Translations under genes and position numbers: made by a program | Origin: Candidatus Latescibacterota bacterium | GTDB taxonomy: Bacteria; Latescibacterota; UBA2968; UBA8231 | DNA length: 64,000 bases | NCBI GenBank assembly: GCA_965208105.1 | Contig: OZ242318.1 | Span: 4,288,001 to 4,352,000 of the forward strand | Direction: 5' to 3' | Part shown: positions 14,159-64,000 of the stretch, one piece after another | Position numbering within the stretch: the first letter of the stretch is position 1 | Layout of the letters: the number at the start of each line of letters is the position of its first letter | Notes under the pieces: model-generated | The model's database searches: none | What the model saw: the letters and a program-made list of their open reading frames with translations, nothing else | What the model was told of the DNA's origin: nothing

Positions 14159-14187
14159 GGACCGGCAGAATCCGGCGATCATTCCCA

Positions 14188-14370
14188 GATCCTCACCGAA
14201 CATTTGGAAACCTTCCTCCAGCAAGCCCGCAGGTCCGAGCACCGCCTGCCGCTCCACGTCGAGAAGGAGATGCGCGCCTACCTCGAATGCTGCATGCTGG
14301 CCTACGGGTTCGTTCGGGCTCGTTGTGAGGACTGCGGGACGGGTCGGGCTGTTGCCATTTCCTGCAAGTG
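14188..14370 (+). mobile_element. IS91-family transposase N-terminal (zinc-binding) fragment
   Basis: QILTEHLETFL...VEKEMRAYLECCMLAYGFVRARCEDCG...AISCK; similarity ends after SCK. Confidence 0.85.
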
Positions 14371-14497
14371 TTACATTCATCTGCCTTTCGATGCCCTGGT
14401 CGGAGTTGTAGCAGCCGCTTCTTGAAAACTGGCTGCCGCAGCATCCCCACAGGGTTAATAATTTATGCCTCACGAATCATTGAAATGGCGGTGAGTG

Positions 14498-15550
14498 ATG
14501 GAAGTGGTGGAAACCCAGGTGGTCTATAGCGACGGCCACCACAACGCCTGGACCGATCTGGCTCTTTTCCAGGGCCGCTGGTACGTCTTTTTCAAAAGCG
14601 GGTGGTGGCATGCCGGGCCCGGACACCGGCCGGTGTATGCCCGCTCTACTGATTTGACGGCCGCGAGCTGGGATAAACCCCGCGGGATTGCACCCGTTGA
14701 CAAATTGTGTTTGTTGGGTTCGGGACCGGCCAAGTTCTTCGTGTGGCAGGAGTCGCTCTGGGCTGTGGTGCACATGGCAGTTCCGACGGATTCCCATGCA
14801 GGCATTCCTCCGGGCAGGGCGGGCAGATCCCAGGCTTTTGTGACATGCTCGCCCGACGGCATGGTGTGGTCGGAGCCGCGGCCGTTGTTTGATCGAGGCC
14901 AATACCTTTGGCGCGTCCAGGAGCGCGACGGCTATCTCTACGCTGCGGTATTCGAGATCTCCTACGAACGCAACCGCGACATCTGGCTCCTGCGCAGCGA
15001 CGATGTCTTTCGCTGGTCCGAGGTGGCGCGCTGGTACGGCAGCCAGCCCGATCTGCTGTTCGACGATGATGGGGAAGCCATTTCGCTCGGGCTTTCGCCG
15101 CGCGACAGCGGTAACTTCCGCAACCTGGACACCCTGCGCCGCGCTCGACCGCCCTACACCCAGTGGGGTACGGAGGAGCTGGGTTTCACCGTGCATTCTC
15201 CGGTCCTGGCAAGGGCCGGAGGCAAGTTGCTGATGGCTGGCGTGGAGTGGCTCGCCAAACCTGGGCGCCAGATGACGCTGCGGGCCTACGAAGATGGTTC
15301 GTTTGGCGATCCCCTTGTACTGTTTCCGGACGGCGACTGTGGGTACCCCGGCATGATCTCGATTCCCGGCCGCGAGGATGAGGTCCTCGTTTCGTACTAC
15401 GGCGGCGTCGATCGGCCCGGACTCAGCTTCCGTCCGGTGACTGTGTCCCTCGAGATCGACGGCGACACCTTTTCGGGCTACACAGACGCGGCCGAGTATT
15501 ACTTCCGTCAGAAGTGCGACATCTTTGTGACTCGGGTACGAGTGAGTTAA
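14498..15550 (+). CDS. BNR/sialidase-like beta-propeller protein
   Basis: DGHHNAWTDL, Asp-box-like SPDGMVWS and SDDVFRWS, GDCGYPG, LVSYY. Confidence 0.65.
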   Translation: MEVVETQVVYSDGHHNAWTDLALFQGRWYVFFKSGWWHAGPGHRPVYARSTDLTAASWDKPRGIAPVDKLCLLGSGPAKFFVWQESLWAVVHMAVPTDSHAGIPPGRAGRSQAFVTCSPDGMVWSEPRPLFDRGQYLWRVQERDGYLYAAVFEISYERNRDIWLLRSDDVFRWSEVARWYGSQPDLLFDDDGEAISLGLSPRDSGNFRNLDTLRRARPPYTQWGTEELGFTVHSPVLARAGGKLLMAGVEWLAKPGRQMTLRAYEDGSFGDPLVLFPDGDCGYPGMISIPGREDEVLVSYYGGVDRPGLSFRPVTVSLEIDGDTFSGYTDAAEYYFRQKCDIFVTRVRVS

Positions 15551-15860
15551 TCAGCCGGAGCCGCGCGGCATCGGTCGCGTCGTCCGTTCGAAGCTGCGGC
15601 TTCCCGGGATGCAAACGAATCCGCCGCTTTCCTTACCAAACCCCGACGCCTCGTCGGGGAGCGCCCAGGCCACATTCACCTTTTCTACCATCGACCGGCC
15701 CTCCAGGCGGTAGAATCCCGCGGTGTTCTGACCGTGTAGGGAGCCGCCTGTAGTTCCCTTCGGGTACTCACAGCACATCGGCTCGCCGGTTTCGCGGTGA
15801 CCGTATCCAAGCATCCAGTTCAGCTGCTGGGTGATCGCCGGATGAGCACCCATGCGGTGA
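15551..15860 (-). pseudogene. PhyH-like dioxygenase fragment
   Basis: HPAITQQLNWMLG...GSLHG...VNVAWAL..GGFVCIPGS, then similarity lost. Confidence 0.55.
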
Positions 15861-16194
15861 AACGGCGCGCAGTGCGGCTTGGGCAGGAGATACAGGCTGC
15901 CCAATCTTGGGTGGTGGATGTCACCCCGCAACCGGATCGACCTCGCCGGGTCCGCCGGAAGGCATTGCACGCGCACTGCGGAACATACCCTCGACGAGTC
16001 GGCAGGAATCTCCCTGGGTGTGGTCGCCGGAGATGGGTTCGCTGGTTGCCCAGGTCGAGGGCGTGGGGCCGGCACCGCCGACCGAGCTCGACATGCCCCA
16101 GGCGGGACCGAAGCCCTTTTCCGGGATCGACCTGGACTCGGTGATCCAGGTCATTTCCGTCCCTACTGCTCCGTCCCTACTGCGAGCCCTGTCA

Positions 16195-16292
16195 AACGAC
16201 CTGCAAACGATCCTCCGCGAGCTTGCCCCGCCCCTTGCGTGTGTTCGGCGCCTTGACAAGAGGGCCGAAAAGGCGCCTCCTTTTTCCTATAC
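16195..16292 (+). mobile_element. IS91/ISCR oriIS-end remnant 1 (divergent variant)
   Basis: GCAAACGATCCTCCG...GCGCCTTGAC-N-AAAAGG/CCTTTT-TCCTATAC; matches family A ends. Confidence 0.65.
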
Positions 16293-16396
16293 TTTTATAC
16301 TTTTGCCGCTCCTGGTTGACCCCGTTCAGGGTGGAACAGCCTGCGTGCGTGAAGCGAACTGTGGAATCAAGTCCTCCAATGCGAAGGGAGTTTGCC

Positions 16397-17281: not shown

Positions 17282-17297
17282 CCCCGGCCTGAGTTTG

Positions 17298-19964
17298 ATG
17301 CTTAAACCCGTTGCCAAAAACGCGCTCGTCGCCGCTTGGGTTGCGGCTGCAGAGGTCGGCGCAGCCCCCCTGCAAGATGTCGTCCCCCGAAGCGGGCACA
17401 TCCACGCCCTGACCATCTTTGCGCACTTTGCCGATGAGCGCGGCTTGGGTCGCGAAGTTCCGTCTTTTGCCGCCGAGATCTTCGCCGAGCAGCCGGGCAG
17501 CCTGACCCACTTCTACCGCGAGATGTCGCGCGGGCAGTTTGCTCTCACCGGCGAGGTGTTGCCCCGCTGGTACGCGTCCTCCAGCAATGCCGAGGTGTAC
17601 GCAGATGCAGAAGGCGGTTATGGTCGCTTTGCCCGCGAGATCATCCAGGCCGTTGATGCCGACGTGGACTTTAGCCGCTACGACAACGATGGCCCCGATG
17701 GAGTTCCCAACTCCGGCGACGACGATGGATACGTGGATTTTATTTTTCTTATTTCGGCCTCGAGCCCAACGGGCTTTATCGTCGAAGAGGCCACAGGCGT
17801 CGCCCATCTCGGGATGGACAAAGACTTCGTAAGCCAGGACCGCGCTCTCCGCGACGGCTTCATCCGGGTCAGCTCGGACAACGGTACTGTCCAGCGCGGG
17901 CGGTCTTTTGCCGAGGCCGTAGGCAGTATGGCACACGAGTTTGGGCACTTCCTGGGCCTGCCCGACCTGTACGACCGCGACTTTGAATCCGGTCCGGACG
18001 ACGACTCGGGCGGCATCGGCTATTGGGGGTTGATGGGGCACGGCAATCGAGGCTGGGGCGAGGTAGATGGCCCCAATCCCTTTTGCGCGTGGAGCCTGGG
18101 GCAACTCGGCTGGCTGGGGGAAAACAACCAACAGCTCGAGGTGCTGAGCGAGGACCGGAATGACGTGGTTTTTACCGATGTCAGTGCCGGCGGTGCCGTG
18201 TACTTATTGCCCGCGCCTGCGCCCGCCGAGCACTTTTTTCTCGTGGAGTTCCGCAGCCGCCAACACAGCTACTACGAGCGCAATCTGCCCGACGAGGGCT
18301 TGCTGATCTGGCGCATAAATCCCACTCGCATCGGCAATAATATGGAAGCCGTCAAACAGGTGGACTTGGTGTGTGCCGATGGGCTTTTTGGGGACGCGGG
18401 TTTTCCCCTGGGCCGCAAGGCATCCCCGTTTAGCGGCCGCGACAATCTCGACTTTTGGGCGCACGACACGCGCTATCGCACGGATTTCGGCGGCAACCTC
18501 GGGGATGCCACCGATGTGTTTGACGGCGAGCAATTTACCGACTTCTGGGCTGCGTCCAACCCGGCGTCCACGACGGGGATCAGCGTGACTGGCATCCGCC
18601 GCGAGGGCGACCAGATGGTGGCCAATCTCAAGCTGCAAGACCGTCGTCGCGCCGGCCCCATCGCCGACATGGAAATCTGGAGCGACCGCATTGAGGTTGT
18701 CGGCGACGTGACCGTCCTGCCCGGAGGGCATCTCGATGTCCGCGCCGGTACGCAGGTGCAGGTGGGGTCGGACGCGCTGGCTACGGGTGCGGATACGGCG
18801 CGCGTGGAACTGATTGTGTACGGCGGTCTCTTCGTCGGCGTTTCGGGGCAGGGACAAACCGCCTTCCACTCGGCCGCAGCCGATCCGCAGCCCGGAGATT
18901 GGCATGGCATCGTGCTGCACCCAACAGCCTCGGTCTATTTGCGCAGCGTCCTCATCGACCATTCCCACTATGGCCTATGGTCCAGGGAAATCGACCACGC
19001 CATTACCTTGGAAGATGTGACAATCCGCCGCGTCAGTGCGGACGGCATTCGCCTGGAAAGGGTCGAAGAGGAGGTTCTCTTTGATCGCGTGCAGGTCGAG
19101 GAAGTGGGTGGAGTGGGCATTTGGATCGCTGGCCCGGGTTTGACGCGGATAAATCGAGCCGAACTGAGCGCCAATGGCCGCGCTGGCCTCTGGCGCGAGG
19201 GTGGGTTTTTGTCGTTGCTCGACAGCCGCTTCAACGACAACGGCTCGGCTGCGCCCGAGGAGGCCAACTTGGTCTTGGGGTGGGCGACCAGCGGCAAGAT
19301 AGCGGGCAATTCGCTTACCGGTGGGATCGGGATTTACTGCGTGGAGACGCGAGAAGCCGAGATCGAGGGAAACGAGCTGTACAATCACGAAGTTGGCCTC
19401 TGGACTAGAAGCGCGCGTCCGCGCATTGTGCGCAATCAATTCTTCCGCAATGCGTTGGCCCTGCGGATAGAGGGGAGCGAGGTGCCGGCACAGCTGGTCT
19501 TGAACGGCGTCCAAGAGGGTGAGCAACTGGTCGATAATCAAGCTAATCAACCGTTGCAGGCGATCAACAACTGGTGGGGAAACGAGAACGAAGATTGGAT
19601 CGAGTCCCGGATCAGCGGCGATGTCAACTGGCGGCCCTTCCTCAACTTCGACCCGCGCACGCCCTTGGACTTTGCCTTGGGACAGAATTATCCCAACCCG
19701 TTCAACGAGGGTACGCAGATCGACTATCAGATCGGGATCAACGACCCCATTGTCGCCGGCGAGACCAGGGTCGAGTTGGAAGTCCGCACCTTGACCGGTG
19801 GTTTGGTGCGGCACCTGGTTGAGGGGTTGGCGGCTCCGGGGTTGTACAGCGCCTCTTGGGATGGCCGCGACGAGCGGGGCGAGCGCGTGGCCAGTGGCAT
19901 GTATTGCTATGTGTTGCGCGTCGGGCCGATCGCCCACGCCAAAAAAATGGTTTTTATAAAATGA
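17298..19964 (+). CDS. Secreted M6 (immune inhibitor A) family metalloprotease with beta-helix and FlgD-Ig C-terminal domain
   Basis: YDNDGPDGVPNSGDDDGYVD, HEFGHFLGLPDLYD, WGLMG, NNWWG, LGQNYPNPFN...WDGRDERGERVASGMY. Confidence 0.88.
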   Translation: MLKPVAKNALVAAWVAAAEVGAAPLQDVVPRSGHIHALTIFAHFADERGLGREVPSFAAEIFAEQPGSLTHFYREMSRGQFALTGEVLPRWYASSSNAEVYADAEGGYGRFAREIIQAVDADVDFSRYDNDGPDGVPNSGDDDGYVDFIFLISASSPTGFIVEEATGVAHLGMDKDFVSQDRALRDGFIRVSSDNGTVQRGRSFAEAVGSMAHEFGHFLGLPDLYDRDFESGPDDDSGGIGYWGLMGHGNRGWGEVDGPNPFCAWSLGQLGWLGENNQQLEVLSEDRNDVVFTDVSAGGAVYLLPAPAPAEHFFLVEFRSRQHSYYERNLPDEGLLIWRINPTRIGNNMEAVKQVDLVCADGLFGDAGFPLGRKASPFSGRDNLDFWAHDTRYRTDFGGNLGDATDVFDGEQFTDFWAASNPASTTGISVTGIRREGDQMVANLKLQDRRRAGPIADMEIWSDRIEVVGDVTVLPGGHLDVRAGTQVQVGSDALATGADTARVELIVYGGLFVGVSGQGQTAFHSAAADPQPGDWHGIVLHPTASVYLRSVLIDHSHYGLWSREIDHAITLEDVTIRRVSADGIRLERVEEEVLFDRVQVEEVGGVGIWIAGPGLTRINRAELSANGRAGLWREGGFLSLLDSRFNDNGSAAPEEANLVLGWATSGKIAGNSLTGGIGIYCVETREAEIEGNELYNHEVGLWTRSARPRIVRNQFFRNALALRIEGSEVPAQLVLNGVQEGEQLVDNQANQPLQAINNWWGNENEDWIESRISGDVNWRPFLNFDPRTPLDFALGQNYPNPFNEGTQIDYQIGINDPIVAGETRVELEVRTLTGGLVRHLVEGLAAPGLYSASWDGRDERGERVASGMYCYVLRVGPIAHAKKMVFIK

Positions 19965-20010
19965 AAATCGAGGCGGATTATCTCGTTCTCGGCAGCGGCA
20001 TTGCCGCGGT
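19961..20010 (+). pseudogene. N-terminal stub of an FAD oxidoreductase (NadB-like)
   Basis: MKIEADYLVLGSGIA overlapping the protease stop; similarity ends after ~15 codons. Confidence 0.5.
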
Positions 20011-20076: not shown

Positions 20077-23000
20077 GTGAAACCGAAACAGAAATTGCTG
20101 CAATCGGGTGCCAGGCCTGGTACGACGATATGGACACTGGGGGCAGCGGTGATCCTTTGCTGGTTGTCGATGTCCCATGCCGAGCCGCTGCCGCTCTTCA
20201 TCGATGCCAATCACGGCGACGGCGACGCGCGCGAGGCAAAAGCCAGACAACCGCTATGGTTCGATGCGGGGGATCCCGCGTGGCAACCGCAGATACCGCC
20301 GCGCGGGGAAGGAAGCGGCGAAACGACGGTTCGAGTGAATTTCCCGGTAGCCGGACGTCGATTGCCCGTTCGCTTCGGCATACCCCTCGGCCAGGTGCCG
20401 TCGGCGCGCAATGTCGCCCTGTTCGATGAATCTGGCCGGGAGGTTCCCGCCGACGTCTTCCCCCTGGTGAATTTCGATACCTCACCGTTGCATTGGGTGC
20501 TGATCGCTACCGTGCTCGATGCGCCCGCTGCGGGGGAGTCGACTCTCTCGATTCGCTGGGGCCCCGGTGTGGAGCGGTCCGACCCCCAACGCTCTCTCAC
20601 GACCGTCGAATCTGCTACCGAGGTGTTTTTCTCGGGAGGCAGCGTAGATTTCACTTTGTCGGCTACCGGGCTCGTATCCAACGTGCGGGTGGGAGAAGAA
20701 CTCTTCGCTCCGAGTGGGGGGAAGGTGGGATTCGACATCAAAGCAGGGCAGAGCTCGCGATCGGCAGGGCCCGGAACTTATCGCCACATGGAGGACAGTA
20801 CCGTCATCGAAAAGCTCTTTGACGGTCCGTTCTACAAGCGCTACCGCGTCTCATCCGCATTCTTTCACAGCGACGCTCTCAATCGCCCCTTCCGTCTCCA
20901 TTTCGAGGTGGAAACCTGGGCCGACAGTCCCTACCTCGTGATCCATTCGCGCTTCATCAACGAAACCTTCAAAGAGATCATGAGCGACCTGGTTCTGTTT
21001 GCTTTCGAACCGGATGGGGGCGAATACGCGGCGGTGGTGTCGGGGGTGGGCGATGCGGAATTCTCTGGTGGGGCTGAGATGTCAGCGCGCCAACGACGCA
21101 ATGAGTGGGTCGTTCGTGCAGATGACACCGACCTGGCGACCGGTTTCGAAAACGATCTCGGGGAATGGGCGCGCATTTCTCGAGGTGGAGAGGCGGTCAC
21201 TTTGGTTGTGCCCGATTTCCAGGGCTTTGGCCCGGCGGAACCGGATCTAGAATCGGTGTTGAGCGCCACCGCTGACGGCGGCCTGGAACTGCGGCACTAC
21301 CGCCCCCTCGAAGGAGCACCGACTACCGACACCGGGGGAACAATCACCTTCTGGAATTCGGCGGCGCGCACCTTCCGCATGGCATTGCACGCCGGCCCTG
21401 ATTCGCTAACCGGGGCGGTAGTGGCTGTTCCGATACGAGAACCTCCATCGATTGTGTACGATCGAGACTTTCTAACCTCGCAGGGCACCTTTGTCGAAGA
21501 CCGCGTCACTTCGATCTACGACGAGGTCAGCCTCGAGGGCACGCGTTATTTCGACCGCGCGCGGGCGGTGCGTCAGGATTACCCTCGATTGGGACGGGGA
21601 ATGCCGCCGCAGAAGGGGGAAGGTTTCGAGAAGCCATACACCAACACCGGCGGCATGTTGTTTGGCGAGGTCTGGCAATACATGGAACCGAACGGCGCCT
21701 GGAACAAGACCTGGATTCGAAAACAAAAAAGCGAAGGAAATCTACCCGGCTGGTATGAGCCGGTACACCTCGAAGGGTTCGCCACCTATCGCGTGGGGGA
21801 CCATGCCATGGCGATGGCGATCAGCTATCTGCGCCGTGGCGACCGCCAGGTCTTCGACATCTTCCGCGACCACGCCATGCTCTACGCCGACTGGGCCGTA
21901 TCGCATCCCACCGGCAGTGTTCACTATTACGCTGACTGGACGGGCAAATCGCAGGTCTACGTGCGGTTGGCGGGACCAATCATCGCCTACCTTGTAGATG
22001 GAGATCCCTGGCTGCTGGAGACCGCCGAGCAGATGGGCGCCAACCTAACGCGGCGGTGGAACGGCGACAATCCGTCGGATCGGGAATCGCGTTCCGCCTA
22101 TCCCGCTCGTGGGTTGACCTGGCTCTACGAAGTGACCGGTCATCGGGGATATTGGAACGAGGCGGTCGACCGGGTTCTGTGGTTCCTCGACGGAGCGCTC
22201 ACCCCCGGTGGCCAGGTTCGCGGGGTCATCAAAGACGATGGCCGCCTGAGCATGCTGTATGCCGGTTATTCCCTGGTCGGGTTGAGCAATGTACACGAAA
22301 GGACGGGAAACGAATCCCTGTTGGCCGCTATGAAGAAAGTGGGCGACTGGCTCATTCGCGTTCAAGGCAAGTACGACGGGTCCTTCAGCGTCAACACCGG
22401 CACCTGGGCTGCGGACGAAAAGCGGGGTTCCCGATCGATGGTAGGTCCAGGGAATGTGGGAACGACCACCTTGTGCGCCGAAGTCCAGACCTACCTGGCA
22501 CAGGTGACAGGTGAGCAGCAGTATTTCTACAGCGGGGCCGCCGCCTGGGCGAACATGGTGACCTCCAGCCGCCACAATTGGATCAAAGGGGGGCTGCCGA
22601 TGCAGACGGAGAACCGCTGGCGAACTGGCACCTGGTCGGACAAGCTGGCGCCGTATTTACACCGGATGCCGGCCCTCGCGGAGAAAAAAGGGTGGCCTTT
22701 TGTGGTGGAAGGCGTCTTCGACCCAGACGCCAAGGAAGGGAAAACGGTTGTTGTCTTCGTTGGTGCCGAGGGACATTTCGAAAACAGGGCCTTGATACAG
22801 CCGATGTTCACTGGGAACAAGGTGCCGGTACAGATTCCGTTGTGGTCGCCGAGCCAGCCGACGAGAGCGACCTACAACGAAAAGGAGATCGAGATCTCGT
22901 CGGGGATCAAAAGAGGAATCTCACTTCTCACTCTGCCCGGAAACGCTCCGCCAGGTATTTTACGGGTCGACTTCGGGCCTGCCGTCCCCACATCAGTGGA

Positions 23001-25637: not shown

Positions 25638-25699
25638 CTCCAACCGCGCTTGCCGACCCGGCGGCGGACGGCGATACGAGCGCTCCGTCCTGCATCCAT

Positions 25700-25741
25700 C
25701 GCCTTGACCGAGAGTCCAAAAAGGACCCATTTTACCTATAC
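25700..25741 (+). mobile_element. oriIS remnant 2 (family A, 42 bp)
   Basis: CGCCTTGACCGAGAGTCCAAAAAGGACCCATTTTACCTATAC. Confidence 0.8.
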
Positions 25742-25797
25742 TTGGGAGTGCGGATGAGGTTTTTTCCAAGGCAACGCGAACCTGAAAGGAAGGTGCT

Positions 25798-28013: not shown

Positions 28014-28084
28014 TCTCGCCAACGGCCACGAAGGTCTGATTTCCGGCTCCCTGGACTCGAGGCGCAAAGCGAGATCGGGAACTG

Positions 28085-28123
28085 CTTGCCCCACCCCTAA
28101 AAGGCCCTTAATATTTCCTAAAC
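28085..28123 (+). mobile_element. oriIS remnant 3 (divergent)
   Basis: CTTGCC-N-AAAAGGCCCTTAATATTTCCTAAAC; same layout as the others, abuts a 5'-truncated GNAT gene. Confidence 0.45.
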
Positions 28124-30838: not shown

Positions 30839-31244
30839 TTGCGAAGGCGCGACATCGCGACGACGAGCTAACGGTGGGCTGGTCAGAACCTGTCCCGAGC
30901 GGAGTCGAGGGAGACCGGGAACCCATCGGAGTTCGCAGTCTGTAGACTGCTCCCACCGCAATCACACGTTTAGGCACTACCCAGAGCAATCGGACCAATG
31001 CTGAGACACGCCCTCAAATTTGGACTTTGCATTCTTCCTTGCAAACGCACAAAGTAAACCGGGAAGCGAGTCCTTAACATGATCGCGAATCACCGGTGGA
31101 CGTATCACCTGCCGTGAAGACCATGAACCCTCCTTCATAGCCCCGTTCAACGGTCACTACCGCGATCGCGAAAAAACCCACCGGAAAGGCTACCACCACC
31201 GCCGCCGTCACCCACCAGGGCTGCTCCCGCAGTGAAAAGATGCG

Positions 31245-31630
31245 CAGGTGTCTTCCTCCGACCTCAGCGCATGCGCGACCTGTGGCGGGCGCCTGAGGAT
31301 CGTCGCCGACCTGACCGATCCGGCCTCGATGCGGACCTATCTGGAGGGGGTAGGGCTGCCGGCGGTGCCTCCGCCGAGGGCCCCGACGCAGCCGCAGTTC
31401 GAGTTCGCCGCCTGACCTGCCTTCTCGACCCGGCGCCGGGCGTACGGCGAGGTGTGCCCTCAACGCTCCCTCAGGCCCCGAATTGATCCGGATCCGGGCC
31501 GACAGGCAACCAGAATGGACTCCGAGCTCGGTCGAAGGACGGGCAAACGATCCTCCGGGAGCTGCCTGACCCTGGCGGTACGCTCAGCGCCTTGACCGAG
31601 AACCCGAAAAGGTCCTCATTTTACCTATAC
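31245..31630 (+). mobile_element. IS91 transposase C-terminal fragment plus oriIS end (family A, longest copy; remnant 4)
   Basis: DLSACATCGGRLRIVADLTDPASMRTYLEGVGLPAVPPPRAPTQPQFEFAA* (stop 31415), then 215 bp ending TTTTACCTATAC. Confidence 0.88.
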
Positions 31631-34387: not shown

Positions 34388-34486
34388 GTCAGTTCTCCTT
34401 TGCAAAATCGGTCACTCCGCGCTTTTCGCTGCATGCGGCGACGCGGGTCGAGGGCCCTGACCGGCGAGGACTCGAACGCTTGTGCC

Positions 34487-34519
34487 GCCCCGAGGCCAGG
34501 CCGTTCCTGGCCTCGGGGC
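34487..34519. repeat. Perfect 14-bp inverted repeat
   Basis: GCCCCGAGGCCAGG-CCGTT-CCTGGCCTCGGGGC. Confidence 0.7.
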
Positions 34520-34558
34520 GCCTGCGCCTCCTCGCTTCGCAACGTCTTTGTTTCGCGC

Positions 34559-34750
34559 TCAAAACGCCGTTCCCCTGGCTGCAAGCCAGTTAGCATCGCG
34601 TCCCGAGCCGGCGCCGATGTCGCAGGCGAATCCAGGTTCTTCACGCAGGTGCGCCTGTGCCCAGTCTGCGTGGACTTCGGCAGGGTCGACTCCGTCATAC
34701 TGGGCGACGAGGGCGTCGGCGTTGAGGTCGTAGTAGCTGGTGCTACTCAT
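34559..34750 (-). pseudogene. Class I SAM methyltransferase N-terminal fragment
   Basis: YYDLNA..QYD, CDIGAGSGRDANWLAARG, then premature end. Confidence 0.7.
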
Positions 34751-35141: not shown

Positions 35142-36977
35142 ATGACAGAAGCAATCCTGCGCGCCGAAGGCCGCACGGCTCCGCCCCACTGGGCGGTGCG
35201 CCAGCGCCACCTGATCGACCTGATGGACCGGGCCGCGGTCCCCTTCACCAGGCACGCGACCCGTCCCGACGGAACCCTGATCCAGCGCACCGTCTGGACG
35301 AGCATGGACGGCACCGACAACGGATACGAGGCCTTCCTGTCGTTTCCCCTCTTCTACCTCCTTGGGGGCAGCGAGTTCATCCACCGCACCGCCCGCAGGG
35401 AGTGGGACGCCATAACCTGGCAGTACGCCAACTACGGCACCGTCGACCGCGAGTTCGTCACCGGCTTCGACTGGTTCCACCACAGCGAGAGCTACACCTA
35501 CATCTACTATCTCGCCATGGCCGACCCCGGGCATTACATCGACCGCACCCGCGCCCTGCGCTACGCCGCCATGTACACCGGGGAGGATCCCCTGGCTCCG
35601 AACTGGGACGCGGAGAAGCGGATGATACGCAGCCCCCTGAACGGCAGCCGCGGCCCGCGCTTCGTCACCACCCGGACCGACTGGGAGTACCACCGGCCGA
35701 TCCTGGCCGGGTACCTCTCCCCGTTCGAGGACATACCCGGCGCCGACAGCCGGGACCCGATGTTCAAGGTCGACTGGACCGACGACGAAACCTTCGCCAG
35801 GGTCCTCGCCCTCATCAACGAGCGCATGACCCGCTGCGACGTGCCCCTGAACCTCAGCGCCGCCAGCATGATCACCAACGCCTACCTGTACACCGGCGAG
35901 GAGAAGTACAGGAGGTGGGTGCTCGACTACCTGGCGAGGTGGGTCGAGCACCGCGACGCCAACGGCGGCATCATGCCGGACAACATCGGGCCCGGCGGCG
36001 GAATCGGGGAGCTCAACAACGGCAAGTGGTGGGGCGGGTACTACGGCTGGCGCTGGCCCCACGGGGCCCGCAACGTCGTCGAGCCGGCCTTCGTCGCCGG
36101 CAGTTGCGCCGCGCTGATGACGGGGGACATGTCGCATCTCGACCTTTGCCGCTCTCAGCTCGACATGCTGTGGTCCCAGCGCCGCGAGATCGACGGGGTG
36201 CCTATGGTCCCGTCCCGGCACGGCGACCGGGGCTGGTTCGACTACCGGCCGCCGGATCCCTACTACTACATCCACCTCTATTATTTGAGCCAGAGCGAGG
36301 AGGACCTCGCCCGCCTCGACGAGCTGTTCCCGGACCGGGACGGGTTCGCCGGCCTGCCGGAAGACTGGGGCGCCGGCAAGGCGGGGATATGTCCGCCCGG
36401 GGCATGGGCGGCTTTCGTCGAGGGGAAGAACCCGGGGTTTCCGGAGCAGGTCCTCGATACGACCTACGGCAGCGTCTGCCGCGCCCTCGACCGGCTCGAG
36501 GCGGACGACAGCGACCCGGAAACGCGGGAGTGCTACCACTTCCAGCAGCTCTGCCCGGTGCTGCCGGAGGGCCTCGTGCAGATGGCCATGGGGACGCCGG
36601 CGGCGGTGTACAACGGCGGCCTGCTGCAGGCTCACCTGCGCTACTTCGACCCGGAGCAGCGGCGCGCCGGGCTGCCCCCGCACGTGGCCGCCCTCGCCGA
36701 CCGCGCCGGCGCGGACCGGGCCCGGGTGACCCTCGTCAACACCGATCCGGTGCAGTCCCGCCCGGTGCTGATTCAGGCCGGCTCCTTCGGCGAGCACGAG
36801 TTCACCGGGGCTTGCGGAACGGACGGCCGCGGGGTAGAGCAGCGGGTGACCGTGGGGGGCAGGCACCTACTCGTCGAGCTGGGAGCGGCGGCGCGCATCG
36901 AGCTCGACCTCGGGATGAAGCGGTTCGTCCACCGGCCTTCGTACGACTTCCCGCCCATGGAGGGAGCATCCGGCTGA
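35142..36977 (+). CDS. Hypothetical protein (611 aa, aromatic-rich)
   Basis: Long ORF with strong GC3 bias, RBS GAGG; no function recognised. Confidence 0.8.
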   Translation: MTEAILRAEGRTAPPHWAVRQRHLIDLMDRAAVPFTRHATRPDGTLIQRTVWTSMDGTDNGYEAFLSFPLFYLLGGSEFIHRTARREWDAITWQYANYGTVDREFVTGFDWFHHSESYTYIYYLAMADPGHYIDRTRALRYAAMYTGEDPLAPNWDAEKRMIRSPLNGSRGPRFVTTRTDWEYHRPILAGYLSPFEDIPGADSRDPMFKVDWTDDETFARVLALINERMTRCDVPLNLSAASMITNAYLYTGEEKYRRWVLDYLARWVEHRDANGGIMPDNIGPGGGIGELNNGKWWGGYYGWRWPHGARNVVEPAFVAGSCAALMTGDMSHLDLCRSQLDMLWSQRREIDGVPMVPSRHGDRGWFDYRPPDPYYYIHLYYLSQSEEDLARLDELFPDRDGFAGLPEDWGAGKAGICPPGAWAAFVEGKNPGFPEQVLDTTYGSVCRALDRLEADDSDPETRECYHFQQLCPVLPEGLVQMAMGTPAAVYNGGLLQAHLRYFDPEQRRAGLPPHVAALADRAGADRARVTLVNTDPVQSRPVLIQAGSFGEHEFTGACGTDGRGVEQRVTVGGRHLLVELGAAARIELDLGMKRFVHRPSYDFPPMEGASG

Positions 36978-37119
36978 TCCGGGTCCGGGCCGGCAGGCAA
37001 CCAGAATGGATTCGAAGTGTGTCCACGGTGGTGAGGCCGCCCAGTCCGAAGTGCGCCACCCTGGCGCTGCGCTCAGCGCCTTGACCGAGAATCCAAAAAG
37101 GTCCTCATTTCACCTATAC
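36975..37119 (+). mobile_element. oriIS remnant 5 (family A)
   Basis: TGATCCGG.TCCGGGCCG.CAGGCAACCAGAATGGA...CGCCTTGACCGAGAATCCAAAAAGGTCCTCATTTCACCTATAC. Confidence 0.85.
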
Positions 37120-42919: not shown

Positions 42920-43188
42920 GGGTGAAGAGGAGCCCGTGCTGGCGGCTCTCGCCGCGGCTTGGTGCGAGGGCTCATCGCCACCGGGGCCCGCGCCGGGCGG
43001 TACGGCGGGGTGTGCCATCAACGCTCCCTCAGGCCCCGAATTGATCCGGATCCGGGCCGACAGGCAACCAGAATGGACTCCGGGCTCGGTCGAAGGACGG
43101 GCAACCGATCCTCCGGGAGCTGCCTGACCCTGGCGCTACGCCCAGCGCCTTGACCGAGAGTCCAAAAAGGTCCTCATTCTACCTATAC
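42920..43188 (+). mobile_element. Internal IS91 transposase fragment fused to oriIS end (family A; remnant 6)
   Basis: EEEPVLAALAAA / VRGLIATGARAG (frameshifted) joined at CGCCGGGCG to 200 bp ending CTACCTATAC. Confidence 0.8.
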
Positions 43189-49974: not shown

Positions 49975-50006
49975 CCCGAGATCTTAAAGTGGATGTCGAG
50001 GTGACG

Positions 50007-50132
50007 GTGCTCGGAGCATTGGCGAACGATTCGGTGCGACGACCAGCGATTCATCAGGGATTCTACCGGACCATTGACAACGGTTTCGGCGAATTACATA
50101 GTACCGATATCGGTGCCTTATTTTTCCTATAC
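50007..50132 (+). mobile_element. oriIS remnant 7 (family B)
   Basis: Matches 59036-59161 and 60612-60703; ACCGATATCGGT palindrome, ends TTTTTCCTATAC. Confidence 0.82.
50074..50102 (+). promoter_or_regulatory. Outward-facing sigma70-type promoter within family B end
   Basis: TTGACA-17-CATAGT; also at 59103-59131 and 60658-60686. Confidence 0.55.
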
Positions 50133-50161
50133 ATCCCCCAACCCACCAGGAGATCGAGGCC

Positions 50162-53631: not shown

Positions 53632-53680
53632 ATGACTGACTGTGTCTTCTGCGACATCTTGTCAGATAGGACGCCATCGA
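53632..53680 (+). pseudogene. HIT family protein N-terminal stub
   Basis: MTDCVFCDIL...PSS cut by oriIS remnant. Confidence 0.65.
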
Positions 53681-53785
53681 GCACGGTCGAAGGACGGGCA
53701 AACGATGCTTCGGGAGCTGCCTGACCCAGGCGGTACGCTCAGCGCCTTGACCGAGAGTCCAAAAAGGTCCCCATTTTACCTATAT
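53678..53785 (+). mobile_element. oriIS remnant 8 (family A)
   Basis: CGGTCGAAGGACGGGCAAACGAT...CGCCTTGACCGAGAGTCCAAAAAGGTCCCCATTTTACCTATA. Confidence 0.85.
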
Positions 53786-53864
53786 GTAGGATGTGACTAG
53801 GGTCGTAGAGCGGATAATAGCCGAGCCGTTCGAGTGACGCGCATCCGACTCATGGAGCAGTTGC

Positions 53865-55264: not shown

Positions 55265-55500
55265 TCGACGGACACACCGGATCACGATGGGTACCGGACA
55301 TATCGACCGGGGCGACTCGGCCTTTCCCACCCTGGTTCCGTTGGACAACGGAGAGATCGTCTGTGGTTTTAGTCGCGGCGGCGGAGCTCATGTCAGTGGG
55401 GGCACCCACTGCGCGCGTTCTGCCGATGGTGGCTCAACCTGGACCTATACGGGAGTGATTCTCGATCGGGCCGAGGATCCGGTAAAGACGAACCATCTGC
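55265..55500 (+). pseudogene. BNR/sialidase-like fragment
   Basis: SAFPTLVPLDNGEIVCGF..RSADGGSTW; cut by transposase remnant. Confidence 0.6.
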
Positions 55501-55770
55501 GCCTCCGCCGAGGGGCCCGCCGCATCCGCAGTTCGAGTTCGTAGCCTGATCTGCCTTCTCGACCCGGCGCCGGGCGTATGGCGAGGTGTGCCCTCAACGC
55601 TCCCTCAGGCCCCGAATTGATCCGGATCCGGGCCGACAGGCAACCAGAATGGACTCCGAGCTCGGTCGAAGGATGGGCAAACGATGCTCCGGGAGCTGCC
55701 TGACCCTGGCGGTACGCTCAGCGCCTTGACCGAGAGTCCAAAAAGGTCCCCATTTTAATTTTACCTATAC
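55499..55770 (+). mobile_element. Transposase tail plus oriIS remnant 9 (family A)
   Basis: PPPR..PHPQFEFVA* then near-identity to 31416-31630; ends TTACCTATAC. Confidence 0.88.
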
Positions 55771-55910
55771 TAATGATAACCTTTCACGCCCCCTGAAAAG
55801 AACCGAAGAAACTTGAATGTGGTGCCACGAAGGAGGCAATAAAGATCAGCGTAGGTGAACTGGCCATGTGGTCAATCGTTGAGATCGATATTTAGATTGC
55901 GAAGGAGGCC

Positions 55911-56465
55911 ATGATGATCGAACAGAATCACCTGGACCTTTTACTCGACCTGAACACTGACGAAAACCCTCACAGCGGTGGGGATCTAATAGACCATCTT
56001 CGGGGAACACACGACTTTCTCCAGGCCTGGGGCAACGACCAGGCCGTGTGTCTTGGAGGTTTGTTTCATAGCATCTACGGCACGCAATCCTACAAGACAG
56101 AGTCAGCGTCCCTTGAAGACCGGCAACGCATCCGCGAAGTGATTGGCGAGAGGGCCGAGCGATTGGCTTTTCTCTTCAGCGTTTCGATCCGCAGTGGGTT
56201 TTTCGAAGGGATAGGAAAGGAGGGGGCAACTGTGTGGAACCGTGTTCACGAGGAGGACACACCCATCGCGCAAGCGGATCTTCGCGACCTCATCGAAATG
56301 GAGGTTGCCAACTATCTGGAATTCATGCCGAGATCCCATTTCACGGTTGAGGAACTTGACACGTTCGAGGCCAAAGTTGAGCGAGGAAAGCCCTTTCTCT
56401 CACCCCTGGCCTACGAAGCGATCAAGGCAGGAATCAGATCGAAACGCCTTGCCATAGCCTCGTAG
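55911..56465 (+). CDS. HD-like/DUF6817 domain protein
   Basis: PHSGGDLIDHLRGT, GLFHSIYGT, IGERAERL; RBS AAGGAGG. Confidence 0.75.
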   Translation: MMIEQNHLDLLLDLNTDENPHSGGDLIDHLRGTHDFLQAWGNDQAVCLGGLFHSIYGTQSYKTESASLEDRQRIREVIGERAERLAFLFSVSIRSGFFEGIGKEGATVWNRVHEEDTPIAQADLRDLIEMEVANYLEFMPRSHFTVEELDTFEAKVERGKPFLSPLAYEAIKAGIRSKRLAIAS

Positions 56466-56715
56466 GGAGAGAAGTGACTTCACATAACACGACTGTACCT
56501 GGCTTCGGGCCGCCATGCGCCTTCGCCGAATTCCTTTACAACGGTGCACGGGGCCGGCGGCAACTGTCCGACGGGGAACGGGGCCGCATAAGAGAGCAGT
56601 ATCGGTCTCCCCATATCGGTCCGGGACTCGGAGAGGTTATCGACAACAGTCGTCAGAGCCCGGAGGAGACACTGGCGCTGATCCGTACTTCCTTGGGCGT
56701 GAAGGAGGTGTAAGG

Positions 56716-57654
56716 ATGCTGTCGCAGGCTCAACTGGACGAGTTCAAGGCCGAAGGGGCGGTCCCTGTACCGGGCCTGGTGCCTCCCGATGTGCTGGAGG
56801 GATGGCAGGCTGAGTTCCGCCGCGCCTGCTCCGACGACGGCGTCGACCTCGGCGACCCGGCCACCTGGCCTGCCGGGCGGTATGCGCCCGAGGGCGGGTG
56901 GCCCGAGCTGAGCCCGTGCCTGTACGACCTGCCCGACCTCCAGTCGATCGTGGAGCAGCTTGGCGGCGGCGCTTTCGCTCCCTCCCACCCGGCGGGGCAG
57001 CCGTGGTCGCCGCAGGTGCCGATGACGCGGGTGATCCTGCCGAGCGAGCCGGGCACGGAGTGGACGCCGCCTGTTGACGGCCACCTCGATGGGTACGCGA
57101 CGGGCTGGGGCGGTGGGTTCATGGCGTTCTTCGTGGTGCTGCTGTGGGACGTGAGCAGCCCAAGGGGCGGGGGCACGGCCTGGTGGCCGCGGTCGCACCT
57201 GGCGAACCACCGCTACTTCCTCGAATACCCGGAGCGCTTCGACGGCTCCTATCTTTTCACGGAGCCGGTGCGCAGCGGCGGACACCGGGCGATTCTGGAA
57301 GGGGACCCGCGTGTGGGCGAGGTGGAATGCATGACCGGCCGGGCAGGGGACGCGCTGCTGCTGCACGGCCTCACCACCCACGTCAACTCGGCGAACGAGG
57401 CGGGGTCACGGCAACCGCGGGTGGCGCAGTTCGCGCGCTATTCCCACAGGAAGATGCGCGAGCAGGCGCCGATGGTCATGTTCCCCGACAAGGACGGGAA
57501 GCCATGGTCGCCCCCGCCTCGGGGCAAGGACACGCCCGAAGAGGAAGTGACTGGGACGGGCTTTCTGCCGCCAGATCACCCGGGGCGGAAGTTCGAGCGC
57601 TACGACGTGCCGCGGAACCTCTGGAAGTACTGGGGTCCCGCTCTCAACACCTGA
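56716..57654 (+). CDS. PhyH family dioxygenase
   Basis: QLDEFKAEG, GHLDG, GGGTAWWPRSH, AGDALLLH...H, PR. Confidence 0.82.
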   Translation: MLSQAQLDEFKAEGAVPVPGLVPPDVLEGWQAEFRRACSDDGVDLGDPATWPAGRYAPEGGWPELSPCLYDLPDLQSIVEQLGGGAFAPSHPAGQPWSPQVPMTRVILPSEPGTEWTPPVDGHLDGYATGWGGGFMAFFVVLLWDVSSPRGGGTAWWPRSHLANHRYFLEYPERFDGSYLFTEPVRSGGHRAILEGDPRVGEVECMTGRAGDALLLHGLTTHVNSANEAGSRQPRVAQFARYSHRKMREQAPMVMFPDKDGKPWSPPPRGKDTPEEEVTGTGFLPPDHPGRKFERYDVPRNLWKYWGPALNT

Positions 57655-58672
57655 CTCCTCGCAGCGCAGGCATATCGACCGCGTCGTCGCGGCGCTCGTG
57701 CATGTTCGCTTCCATGGCTTCAGGGTAGCGATGCGGGAGGTGGGAAACCTGGTCGAGCCGGGCGCGGGCATCGTCCGGAAGACAAAAGCTGCCGGCGAGC
57801 ATGTTGTCTCGCGCCTGCTCGACCGTGCGCGCGCCAATGATGACCGAAGTGATGGCCGGTTGTTCCAGCACCCAGCGCAGGGCAACTTGCGCCGGTGAAC
57901 GGCCCATCTCGTCGGCTACCGCCAAGAGCGTCTCCAAGGTCTCGTCGGCATTGGCGGCAAAATAGCTTTGCGGGTAGGCCCAGGCATCCGCGGAACGCGT
58001 GCCCGCTACGGTGCGCTCGCCGGGCTTGTACTTGCCGGAGAGAAAGCCGCCGCCGAGCGGACTCCACACCACCACGCCCAATCCCTTGAGCTGACAGACG
58101 GGAATCAGCTCCTGCTCAATGTCGCGCACGACCAGGCTGTATTGCGGTTGATAGCACTCGAAGCGCGCCAGGCCATTCGCGTCCGATATCCACAACGCCT
58201 CCATCAAACGCCAGGCCTGATAGTTGGAACAGGCGGTATAGCGCACCTTGCCTTGGCGAACCAAATCGTCGAGCGCGCGCAGCATCTCCTCCAACGGGGT
58301 CTGAGTATCCACGTGGTGAATGTAATAGAGGTCGATGTAATCTGTCTGGAGCCGATGGAGACTGTCTTCGACGGCGTTCATAATGCGCACCCGCGACATC
58401 CCCGAGTCGTTGGGACCAGGCCCCATAGGGTTGAAGAACTTGGTGGCAATGACCGCATCGCGGCGGCGGCCCTTGAGCGCCTTGCCGGTGAAGACCTCGG
58501 ACTCGCCGCCGCCATAAGAATCGGCCGTGTCGAAGAAATTGATGCCTGCGTCAAACGCCAGATCGACGATCCGCCGGGACTCCTTCTCGTCGGTGCTGTG
58601 GCCAAAAGTCATAGTGCCCAGGCAAACTTCCGATGCTTTGAGGCCCGTGCGACCCATTCTGCGGTATTCCAT
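57644..58672 (-). CDS. Aldo/keto reductase
   Basis: GTMTFG, FFDTADSY, IATK, DYIDLY, GKVRY, WSPLGGG. Confidence 0.95.
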   Translation of the reverse strand: MEYRRMGRTGLKASEVCLGTMTFGHSTDEKESRRIVDLAFDAGINFFDTADSYGGGESEVFTGKALKGRRRDAVIATKFFNPMGPGPNDSGMSRVRIMNAVEDSLHRLQTDYIDLYYIHHVDTQTPLEEMLRALDDLVRQGKVRYTACSNYQAWRLMEALWISDANGLARFECYQPQYSLVVRDIEQELIPVCQLKGLGVVVWSPLGGGFLSGKYKPGERTVAGTRSADAWAYPQSYFAANADETLETLLAVADEMGRSPAQVALRWVLEQPAITSVIIGARTVEQARDNMLAGSFCLPDDARARLDQVSHLPHRYPEAMEANMHERRDDAVDMPALRGVRC

Positions 58673-58714
58673 TATCTGAATCCCTTATCTATTGGATGTG
58701 AACGCGGATGAAGG

Positions 58715-58819
58715 ATGAGGAGGAATGCTCCTTGTCCATGTGGCAGCGGTAAAGAATACAAGAAATGCCACGGTAGTACTTCGTGGTGTGTTTCCCCCGT
58801 TTTGTCAAGGGCTTGGTAA
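58715..58819 (+). pseudogene. SEC-C motif mini-ORF or fragment
   Basis: [20 protein letters not shown]. Confidence 0.6.
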
Positions 58820-58888
58820 GAAATTGCAACTGCTGAGCCGTCATTAACCTGGAGGGGTGTGTCGTAGCGCAAGTTCCTTTTTTACCTT

Positions 58889-59161
58889 GCCCCGCCGAGG
58901 GCCCCGCCGCAGCCTCAGTTCGAGTTCATAGCCTGACCTCCTCCGTGATTCGCTCCCTGCGCCGAGAGCCGTACGGCGGAGTGCGCCCTCAAAAACCAGG
59001 TTGACTCCTGAACCGCGCCGAAATCCTTTACAACCGTGCTCGGAGCATTCCGGAACGATTCGGTGCGACGACCAGCGATTCATCAGGGACCCTACCGGAC
59101 CCTTGACAACGGTTTCAGCGAATGGCATGGTACCGATATCGGCGCCTTATTTTTTCTTTAC
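58889..59161 (+). mobile_element. Transposase tail plus oriIS remnant 10 (family B)
   Basis: PPRAPPQPQFEFIA* (same tail as family A), then family B end ...CCTTATTTTTTCTTTAC. Confidence 0.85.
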
Positions 59162-59178
59162 ATTGGAGCCAGTGAAGA

Positions 59179-60611: not shown

Positions 60612-60703
60612 GAGTCGGTGCGACGACCAGCGATCCATCAGGGATTCTACCGAGCCCTTGACAACGGTTTCAGCGAATGGCATAGTACCGATATCGGTGC
60701 CTT
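60612..60703 (+). mobile_element. oriIS remnant 11 (family B, lacking terminal CCTATA)
   Basis: TCGGTGCGACGACCAGCGAT...ACCGATATCGGTGCCTT. Confidence 0.82.
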
Positions 60704-60896: not shown

Positions 60897-60904
60897 AGAA
60901 GACC

Positions 60905-62401: not shown

Positions 62402-62540
62402 GGCCACGCGGGGGGGTCGAGGAGGCCACGGCTCAACGCCCTGCTTGCACCGACGAGCGATAACACGGTTGATGCCGGCGGCGTTTCGACCGTCGCGGTG
62501 CGCTTGACCTGCGGAACCGGTTCTGAACAAAGGAGCTATC

Positions 62541-63830
62541 ATGACCGTCTTGAGTACTCGCGATCGGGACTTCTGGGAAGAAAACGGCTACGTCGTCATA
62601 CCGAATGCCGTCCCTCAGGAAAACCTGGATGCCGTCATTGAAGCCATGCAGGTGTTCTGCGGTCGCGACTTCTCGAAGCCGGAGGAATGGTACGGCATTC
62701 CCCGCAACCCGGGCAGCAGCCTCATCAACATGATGCGCCACCAAACCCTTTGGGAGAATCGCCAGTGTCCGCGCATCCACCAGGCCTTTGCCGAGATTCT
62801 GGGCACCGAGGCCTTGATCGTCTCGCAGGACCGGGTCGCCATGAATCCGCCCAACCACGGCGACTGGCAGTATGACGGGTTCATACACTGGGACATGGAT
62901 TCGACTCAGAGCCCCATCCCACTGCAAGTGCAGGGTGTCCTCTACCTGGCCGATACCGACGCTAATCAGGGAGGATTTCAATGCGTGCCCGGTTTCCATC
63001 GGAAGCTGGAGGAATGGTCGAAAACCCAACCACCCGACCGCCATCCCAAGTGGCCCGAGGATATGGCAGCCTTCGACGTTCAGCCCATTCCCGGGGAAGC
63101 CGGCGACCTGCTCATATGGCACAGCGCCTTACTCCACGGCAATGGCGCCAACTGCTCCAGCCGCCCCCGCCTGTCCCAGTTTATGCTGATGATGCCGGCC
63201 CGGGATCGAACTGGCAGCGGCGTGTTGCCCCTGGCTCGGACCCACGAGGAGGTCGTCGGTGAAGCCCTCGGTACCCCGCAGGTTCTGGTGGAGCGCTGGT
63301 TGGCTGAACATCGCGGCAGTGACCTGGTGCATGCTCGGATCGAGGAGATACTCGGGGAACACCCCAGCTACCCGGCCTGGAAGATTCGCTCCAACGGCGA
63401 CCTGTTCTTCGCCAAGAAATCGTTGGTAAAGCCGGTAGACGAGACCACCGTGGAGCTTACTCGCTCCGATGCTGAGAGTTTTGGCCTGCCAATCTTGCGC
63501 CACCTGGAAGAAGGCCTGATCGAATCGATCCTGCGCATTCCGCAGCCGCAGCACGAGCCGAAACTCAGTTCCGACCAGCTGGCTCGCTTGCCCGATCTAC
63601 TGCGACAGACTCCGGCCGCTTTCGACCTTGGCGACAGCACCATCTGGAATGAACACCATTGGCAGCACACGATTTCCGGAGGAGCGGCCTTTGGATGCGG
63701 CGACGACCGCATCTGGAACGAGCGGGATGTCGCCTACCTGATGCACGTCGAGTTCGGTCTGGAGCTCGATGTCCGGGACGCCGTGCTCACACCCTTGGGC
63801 CGCAAGCTCGCTGGCGTCGATTCCTGGTAA
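62541..63830 (+). CDS. PhyH family dioxygenase with C-terminal extension
   Basis: FWEENGYVV, IHWD, QGVLYLADT..GGFQCVPGFH, GDLLIWH..LHG, LTPLGRKL. Confidence 0.9.
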   Translation: MTVLSTRDRDFWEENGYVVIPNAVPQENLDAVIEAMQVFCGRDFSKPEEWYGIPRNPGSSLINMMRHQTLWENRQCPRIHQAFAEILGTEALIVSQDRVAMNPPNHGDWQYDGFIHWDMDSTQSPIPLQVQGVLYLADTDANQGGFQCVPGFHRKLEEWSKTQPPDRHPKWPEDMAAFDVQPIPGEAGDLLIWHSALLHGNGANCSSRPRLSQFMLMMPARDRTGSGVLPLARTHEEVVGEALGTPQVLVERWLAEHRGSDLVHARIEEILGEHPSYPAWKIRSNGDLFFAKKSLVKPVDETTVELTRSDAESFGLPILRHLEEGLIESILRIPQPQHEPKLSSDQLARLPDLLRQTPAAFDLGDSTIWNEHHWQHTISGGAAFGCGDDRIWNERDVAYLMHVEFGLELDVRDAVLTPLGRKLAGVDSW

Positions 63831-63932
63831 TCGCAACTTCCCGCTTCACGCCGCGAGCCGGGATGGGTCGGCGGCAGCATGTCAGCATGGGGAATGCCCA
63901 GTAACATTTTCGCCGAAAACTGGAGGAAGCTC

Positions 63933-64000
63933 ATGTCCGAATTCGTTTTTCCCGACCTGCAGGGCATAAGCGACGCCTACGATCGAGACGGTTACGCCAT
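63933..64000 (+). CDS. Probable PhyH family gene, runs off the window
   Basis: RBS GGAGG; MSEFVF...AYDRDGYA. Confidence 0.5.
   Translation, partial: MSEFVFPDLQGISDAYDRDGYA

Follow-up and report, generated by a model that had tools for sequence, protein, structure and literature searches.

How does a bacterial chromosome come to carry a long series of gene blocks punctuated by related repeats that all point the same way? The question is raised by a stretch of 64,000 nucleotides (nt) from the sponge-associated Candidatus Latescibacterota bacterium (assembly GCA_965208105.1, contig OZ242318.1, positions 4,288,001 to 4,352,000, forward strand), hereafter the window, for which an initial annotation made from the letters alone had listed eleven co-oriented ends of the IS91/ISCR type (IS, insertion sequence; ISCR, insertion sequence common region) to the right of position 14158. 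The repeats are the 3' leftovers of an ISCR-like element of the IS91 family, and the window holds the left part of an island found at the same locus in a sister species. On balance, we read this island as a hypervariable accessory-gene region organized around many same-orientation copies of that element.

The element, its remnants and the island they occupy

As to what the repeats are, a sister species of the same genus (G001; 5.9 Mb in one contig) has a full copy of the transposase, a protein of 476 amino acids (aa) with the C-terminus ..PFEFAA, which matches the domains Y2_Tnp (E=1e-28, 101 bits, cut-off 20.9) and Zn_Tnp_IS91 (E=1.4e-20, 73.5 bits, cut-off 26.3) and in whose translation the motif NPHVHVL can be read; the domain scan of this protein found the zinc-binding and Y2 domains only, and no helicase domain. 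The closest NCBIfam model is 'ISCR element clade Ia' (NF052416; E=9.6e-106, 354 bits against a cut-off of 925), and the IS91 equivalog NF033538 scores 103.9 bits, below its cut-off of 125; since both scores lie under the curated cut-offs, the element is ISCR-like but represents a separate lineage. The relatives found outside the Latescibacterota are at most 57% identical, with 36-45% identity in 63 of 71 of those loci. Alignment of four copies in different contexts places the left end ~125 nt before the start codon, and the terminus lies 224 nt past the stop codon, the whole element of about 1.8 kb comprising a terIS region of ~125 nt, the gene for the 476-aa HUH transposase and an oriIS of ~224 nt.

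A profile of the repeat family, built from 12 long copies and searched with nhmmer at a reporting threshold of E<=0.01, has ten matches in the window (Table 1), each on the + strand, and none in positions 1-14158, as the initial annotation had claimed; a separate repeat search returned the same families. Three oriIS subtypes (A, B and C) differ in their interiors and have in common the last codons of the protein (..PPRAPxQPQFEFxA and stop) and the terminus, which reads ..CCTATAC at seven ends (16292, 25741, 31630, 37119, 43188, 50132 and 55770), ..CCTATA at 53784/5 and, in degenerate form, ..TTCTTTAC at 59161. The transposase codons, recognized by the motif ..P[QH]FEF.. and stop, are present at three places (31236-31415, 55373-55549 and 58868-58936), the number given in the initial annotation, and together with the two domains of the intact relative they bear out the proposed IS91/ISCR-type identity. 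Nine of the eleven listed ends are true termini. The remnant at 60703 is cut at its 3' side, stopping at ..GGTGCCT with the T-run and CCTATA missing; its counterpart in the sister species is an intact end followed by a group II intron of ~504 nt and the same cargo, so that, relative to the sister species, the tail and the intron were deleted together in G000, the genome that holds the window. Position 28123 (28060..28123), considered as a decayed end, lacks support: it has no nhmmer match and only a weak resemblance by eye, and the matching region of the sister species contains neither transposase nor repeat signal. Two further transposase pieces, at 14186-14368 and 34423-34680, were located by tblastn beyond that list.

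Counted over the 4.85-Mb single contig of the genome that holds the window (G000), the profile has 50 matches. Fourteen fall within 4304122-4377161, about 2% of the genome, where about one would be expected, and 14/14 are on the + strand (p ~1e-4, by our own arithmetic); fifteen lie in a second island at 2488476-2550034, 15/15 on the - strand, and the remaining matches form smaller same-strand groups. The remnants thus lie in clusters of one orientation instead of being spread over the genome, in keeping with the array first proposed. Of 168 genomes in the phylum, 22 contain an exact match to a 16-nt terminus pattern (the reversed control pattern has three matches in all), and heavy loads are confined to G001 (66), G000 (15) and two other genomes, G016 (16) and G038 (15). 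More co-oriented runs are found in G001, G016 and G038, for example 16/16 on the - strand at 1.736-1.804 Mb of G001 among the matches listed. Replication as the determinant of strand was considered and rejected: dnaA lies at 2.98 Mb, cumulative GC skew peaks at ~0.35 Mb, and clusters at 0.79-2.40 Mb (+) and 2.49-2.55 Mb (-) occupy the same replichore.

The island of G000 measures ~97 kb with 14 remnants and that of the sister species (3610752-3762300) ~151 kb with 36 remnants, 36/36 on the + strand, between the same core flanks. On the left, core homology (83% identical) ends at 14186, at the same base in both genomes, and on the right it restarts at G000 4399040 = G001 3762347 (86-89% identical); the flanks overall are 82-89% identical and two distant core regions 76-86%. 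Within the island, the content differs and is reshuffled between the two species, and 25 matches of at least 500 nt are 90.4-98.9% identical, and window 27134-31040 has its match (97.7-99.5% identical) at another locus of G001, in inverted orientation. Since identity is 90-99.5% in the island versus 76-89% in the core, with the jump falling exactly at the island edge, island content was exchanged much later than the species split; the gain and exchange of blocks between constant flanks is of the kind that the initial annotation had proposed to look for in related genomes. A candidate empty site is seen in a genome of another genus (G008), where 4.5 kb separates homologues of both flanking genes, the left homologue being only 39% identical. 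The left edge itself carries a transposase fragment in both species, of the IS91 type in G000 and, at 3610752-3611190 of G001, an N-terminal fragment (MRKFKKFVALDIHKDSITVA..) that, judging by its motif, is putatively IS110-like.

The initial annotation had described the array as lacking an integrase. No tyrosine recombinase (PF00589) matches within G000 4302159-4399000 or G001 3610752-3762300 and no integrase is found among the 61 window open reading frames (ORFs) scanned, which upholds this description; an island bounded by a tRNA or integrase was likewise rejected, there being no tRNA at the edges and no integrase in either island. A tyrosine recombinase gene is present 18-25 kb beyond the other large array (G000 2574270-2574782, -; G001 1829182-1829694, -).

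The sequence that follows the terminus is C[T/A]TN in 43 of 48 termini of both islands (CTTN in 29, CATN in 14), counted with the final C of CCTATAC; of the other five, one has CGTC, two are followed by a group II intron and two by something else. According to a preprint, IS91-family elements insert without target duplication next to a tetranucleotide that has T in second place on the oriIS side (bioRxiv 10.1101/2025.01.24.634351). The CTTN form fits this rule and CATN has A in the second place. Each of the three subtypes has a predicted hairpin at 17-22 nt from the nick. Site-specific insertion at CCTATA was considered and set aside, the repeated sequence after two G001 ends being a group II intron and hence no evidence for it. 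This ORF-less intron (RF02005, 134.9 and 78.5 bits; ~504-605 nt, at 3657906.. and 3690275..) starts with GTGCG directly after the CCTATA of an A-type and of a B-type end, which looks like homing to a hairpin-plus-T-run motif.

Block boundaries and competing explanations

Two co-oriented oriIS ends flank every block of the array in the window, and block starts are associated with termini: nine of 25 fall in the interval from -150 to +70 nt around a terminus in one genome or both, where about two would be expected (rough binomial p ~1e-4 by our own arithmetic, the blocks not being independent). The clearest case to describe is the cassette at 55812-59161, which begins 42 nt past an A-type terminus in the window and 3 nt past a non-orthologous B-type terminus in G001, its common DNA opening with CTTGAATG in both genomes. 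The neighbours of this cassette differ on either side, and its order relative to the block at 60704 is swapped between the genomes. A PhyH block of 2.3 kb is duplicated within G001, one copy lying 47 nt past a terminus.

We consider it somewhat probable that the locus is an array of translocatable units formed by ISCR-type capture and reshuffled by recombination, which in G000 has no transposase of its own and is decaying. Successive co-oriented oriIS ends would delimit gene blocks acting as such units; a transposase supplied in trans would start at one oriIS and stop at the next upstream oriIS, as proposed for ISCR2 and ISCR28, and homologous recombination between the directly repeated remnants would insert, delete and reorder blocks with polarity kept, while blocks pass horizontally between species. 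Rolling-circle capture, the formation of circles and the part played by recombination are steps that we infer from the arrangement of ends and blocks. In G000 the transposase survives as fragments only, with six weak Y2_Tnp matches and a single Zn_Tnp_IS91 match at the left edge of the island in the window, and a genome-wide domain and tblastn search found no intact transposase gene, which argues that the array there is now frozen and shrinking.

A number of observations weigh against this reading. Sixteen of the 25 block starts lie away from termini, and all six of the G001-specific inserts examined enclose the terminus, with 24, 499, 977, 3315, 3522 and 5004 nt of insert DNA past it. Each of these inserts opens either with unique DNA or with a truncated transposase gene, and three of the six fall precisely between two genes that are neighbours in G000, after the stop codon of one and before the ribosome-binding site of the other. 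A remnant-bearing G001 insert of ~310 nt (3731676-3731988) has a 12-nt direct duplication around it (AGCGCGGTCCGA / AGCGCTGGTCCGA; site in G000 at 4379920-4379931, window-frame 91920-91931) and is not bounded by a terminus; such a duplication is unexpected from IS91-type insertion and no IS91-type mechanism explains it. No flanking duplications of the ISCR1/3'-conserved segment (3'CS) type were found around the four inserts checked, and for complete copies of the element the genomes offer no clean pair of an occupied and an empty site. G001 has internally deleted remnants (aa 1-162 + 337-458; aa 1-87 + 272-476) beside a copy that is almost whole (aa 38-476) and others shortened at the 5' side to many different extents, which indicates that the shape of remnants reflects decay. 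The gene after the terminus is on the same strand in 12/12 cases in G000 and in 24/36 in G001 against a baseline of 62% (genes called by a crude caller based on GC content at third codon positions, GC3), which gives no general cassette or promoter rule. An outward promoter rule likewise lacks support, a sigma-70-like TTGACA-17-CATAGT being present in two B-type ends only and counts not exceeding those in shuffled sequence. The end hairpins are no stabler than shuffled sequence (z -0.08 to -1.51), neither a circle nor an excision junction was shown, and the comparison rests on one sister genome.

Regarding the mechanism first proposed, the accretion of blocks by repeated oriIS-driven events therefore stands in part: block gain and exchange at the locus are evident, and accretion of this kind is plausible, while simple oriIS-ended insertion would predict neither the internal termini nor the duplication. 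The truncation of all copies at their 5' side, which had been read as a mark of one-ended transposition, is not upheld as such, given the internal deletions and the near-complete copy. Recombination and decay clearly contribute.

If decay were the whole story, the locus would be a graveyard of many independent insertions into a tolerant variable region, with a regional and strand preference, followed by decay of the copies and without movement of the blocks. This is the less probable but still serious alternative, to which the internal deletions and cuts of every size, the sixteen block boundaries away from termini and the termini inside all six inserts lend weight, as do ends adjoining cut genes (the GNAT gene at 31630; G001 3757283 and 3748425), which could reflect plain insertion followed by deletion. 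It leaves unexplained the identity of 90-99.5% in the island against 76-89% in the core, the jump exactly at the island edge and the cassette at 55812-59161 behind non-orthologous ends, and the choice of strand is independent of replication direction.

Doubtful is a reading of the locus as an integron-like cassette system run by a rolling-circle transposase in place of an integrase. Each oriIS would then serve as origin for its own block and as terminator for the next, and a transposase acting in trans would excise single-strand circles that re-enter at or beside resident ends. If true, this would be a polarised 'super-array' at one site, fed by a cassette pool across sponge-symbiont species.

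Unlikelier again is movement of the island by other means, that is uptake with homologous or microhomology recombination, or an unseen larger mobile element, the ends being homology patches or passengers. The 12-nt duplication around a remnant-bearing insert, inserts at intergenic points with unique DNA on either side of the remnant, and recent blocks shared by G000 in spite of its lack of an intact transposase would all fit. Against it, neither island has an integrase or a tRNA at its edges, and the strict polarity of every cluster in four genomes, with the excess of block starts at termini, points to a role for the ends.

An assembly artefact, namely a chimeric join at repeats, is very improbable: the genome was assembled from a metagenome, its contamination is put at 8%, and the junctions other than 53785 are unbridged by short public contigs, but the copies are just 62-95% alike and at most 280 nt long, the independent single-contig assembly of G001 repeats this architecture at the locus and is collinear over long stretches, and the junction at 53785 is bridged by contigs of three runs from three studies (X1 record 4, X10 record 13, X5 record 18), so that assembly error is unlikely because two independent assemblies agree and contigs cross that junction. 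The runs that contain the stretch are mostly sponge or marine metagenomes (10 studies), and run X1 may be the source sample. Joints in short contigs of X5 (55589->58985; 58907 back to 55545), considered as junctions of cassette loss, a circle or a tandem, have their sides within the repeat and were not used.

Features and cargo of the window

The individual remnants are listed in Table 1.

Table 1. Remnants of the IS91-family element and associated features, in window coordinates
Feature	Position	Strand	nhmmer match (+)	Evidence or remark
Island, G000 4302159 to ~4399000 (window part = left ~50 kb)	14159..64000	+		remnants, G001 comparison
IS91-family transposase 5' fragment, aa 23-83 of G001 protein	14186..14368	+		tblastn, 87% identity
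oriIS remnant, C-like type, terminus ..TTTTTCCTATAC then TTTT	16122..16292	+	16122-16298	nhmmer E=2.2e-25
Short oriIS remnant, A type, 47 nt, CCTATAC then TTGG	25695..25741	+	25695-25748	nhmmer E=2.2e-5
Transposase 3' end (aa 420-476, ..PQFEFAA and stop) + 215-nt oriIS, A type, CCTATAC then TTCT	31242..31630	+	31367-31638	
Isolated internal transposase fragment, aa 293-373	34423..34680	+		tblastn E=9.6e-17
oriIS remnant, A type, CCTATAC then TTCC	36975..37119	+	36975-37124	nhmmer
oriIS remnant, A type, CCTATAC then TTCT	42925..43188	+	42938-43194	repeat search, nhmmer
oriIS remnant, B type, ACCGATATCGGT palindrome + T-run, CCTATAC then ATCC	50004..50132	+	50005-50138	nhmmer
oriIS remnant, A type, CCTATA then TGTA	53664..53785	+	53664-53788	nhmmer; junction bridged by metagenome contigs
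Transposase last codons + oriIS, A type, CCTATAC then TAAT	55501..55770	+	55501-55770	motif, nhmmer
Cassette: DUF6817 gene, 379-aa ORF, aldo/keto reductase (- strand), own B-type remnant	55812..59161	+		
Transposase last codons + oriIS, B type, degenerate ..TTCTTTAC then ATTG	58891..59161	+	58891-59167	nhmmer
B-type remnant, 3'-cut, without terminus	60613..60703	+	60613-60703	nhmmer, sequence

The transposase fragment at the left edge adjoins core DNA and contains a match to Zn_Tnp_IS91 (Pfam) at 14189-14371 (E=1.3e-8). At 31242-31412 the last 57 codons (aa 420-476) were mapped by tblastn with the intact transposase of G001, and the 31630 end adjoins a 5'-cut GNAT gene whose profile is matched from position 68 onward only. 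Between the isolated internal fragment and the following oriIS remnant stands an ORF of 611 aa, and that following remnant (36975..37119) is orthologous to the 3' end of the near-complete copy in G001. Genes start 57 nt past the terminus at 25741 (GFO/IDH/MocA) and 18 nt past that at 59161 (PIN).

The remnant ending at 16292 has a small repeat of its end (TATAC) 8 nt beyond the terminus, and within the one ending at 55770 an 8-nt stretch is repeated (TTTTAATTTTACC). Short tandem copies of the terminus were noted at window 55745-55770 and 16286-16300 and in a further genome (G010:C2:3679298-3679357), for example TTTTAATTTTACCTATA and CCTATACTTTTATAC. One intact copy (L024, reverse strand) is followed, 78 nt beyond its terminus, by a second mini-terminus. 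Such mini-repeats may have been left by successive rounds of cleavage and joining there.

Regarding cargo, the window encodes four PhyH proteins, three xylose-isomerase-like TIM proteins, three GFO/IDH/MocA proteins and three ankyrin proteins, in addition to aldo/keto reductases, GNAT, PIN and proteins with a type IX secretion system (T9SS) tail; the second island of G000 has eight PhyH proteins, sulfatases, GNAT, ankyrin and a serpin. No antibiotic-resistance families were present in the Pfam matches of 61 window and 54 second-island ORFs, a scan that was not a dedicated resistance-gene screen. One of the proteins with a T9SS sorting tail (TIGR04183; 1073 aa, window 20077-23298) is missing from the otherwise collinear G001 block, in which window 17283-20007 and 23379-24605 are adjacent. 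The 611-aa ORF (35142-36977, +) has a GC3 of 0.92 and no Pfam or NCBIfam match; DUF8034 was suggested by a protein-atlas feature search, as a lead only, and its DNA is 70-90% identical across 16 genomes of two families.

Intergenic spacers of the island at 51676/51682, 46359/46364 and 49794-50122 are hypervariable between populations, contigs carrying 230, 47 and 98 other letters there, and the genes beside them are 96-99% alike. A dispersed repeat of ~166 nt, with copies 91-96% alike at window 7048-7213, 8439-8604 and 49809-49974 and at L113:5832-6002, has at least 12-15 copies per query in G001 on both strands and a depth spike of 460-990 in four of four metagenome runs; it is probably a miniature inverted-repeat transposable element unrelated to the IS91-type ends.

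Comparison with known systems

ISCR and IS91 elements have been blamed for the assembly of antibiotic-resistance regions. The islands described here are a natural, resistance-unrelated system with dozens of units, blocks common to species and an apparently intact transposase in the sister species, and their many junctions could separate capture, termination at a second oriIS and recombination. They also suggest a route by which genes for ankyrin, serpin, sulfatase and PhyH proteins are traded among sponge symbionts. A limited full-text literature search found no paper on arrays of this size or on any IS91-type element in Latescibacterota.

Helitrons are alike in their HUH rolling-circle logic and in gene capture beside one end; they differ in that the transposase here has no helicase domain, the host is bacterial and the termini are other. 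Chromosomal integron arrays are likewise polarised, sit at a fixed site and consist of horizontally shared cassette-like blocks that vary between close relatives, whereas here no integrase is present, the repeats are transposon ends and not attC sites, and the blocks measure 1-13 kb, hold several genes on both strands and often have their boundaries off the repeats.

IS91, IS801 and IS1294 also have distinct ori and ter ends; they have subterminal palindromes, and here the predicted end hairpins are no stabler than shuffles. The tetranucleotide of IS91 is CTTG, and here it is CTTN or CATN; one-ended transposition of these elements takes DNA on the terIS side, whereas here species-specific DNA lies on both sides and no one-ended event can be traced.

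For ISCR1, variable DNA lies on the oriIS side and is expressed from outward promoters within the 232-bp oriIS region (PMC6218425; PMC13393415). Three same-orientation copies of ISVsa3/ISCR2 in an island of Acinetobacter, two of them complete and the third truncated, give circular units, each of cargo and one copy (PMC9557058), and for ISCR28 a citing paper reports a gene captured between two sequential oriIS ends (PMC12772301). As of 2018, one source states, no ISCR transposition had been demonstrated experimentally (PMC6218425). ISCR1, ISCR2/ISVsa3 and ISCR28 resemble the present element in having an HUH transposase with a zinc-binding N-terminus and an oriIS reaching ~224-232 nt past the gene, and the arrangements are alike in the variable cargo on the oriIS side and in the bracketing of blocks by truncated and complete copies in the same orientation. 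They differ in number, with two to three copies there and 14 and 36 ends over ~97 and 151 kb here, in setting, the present arrays being chromosomal, occupying sites that are orthologous between two species of an uncultured phylum and having no integron link, and in cargo, which is here made up of metabolic and eukaryote-like genes. The architecture is thus the same as in the ISCR arrangements, repeated 14 to 36 times on a chromosome.

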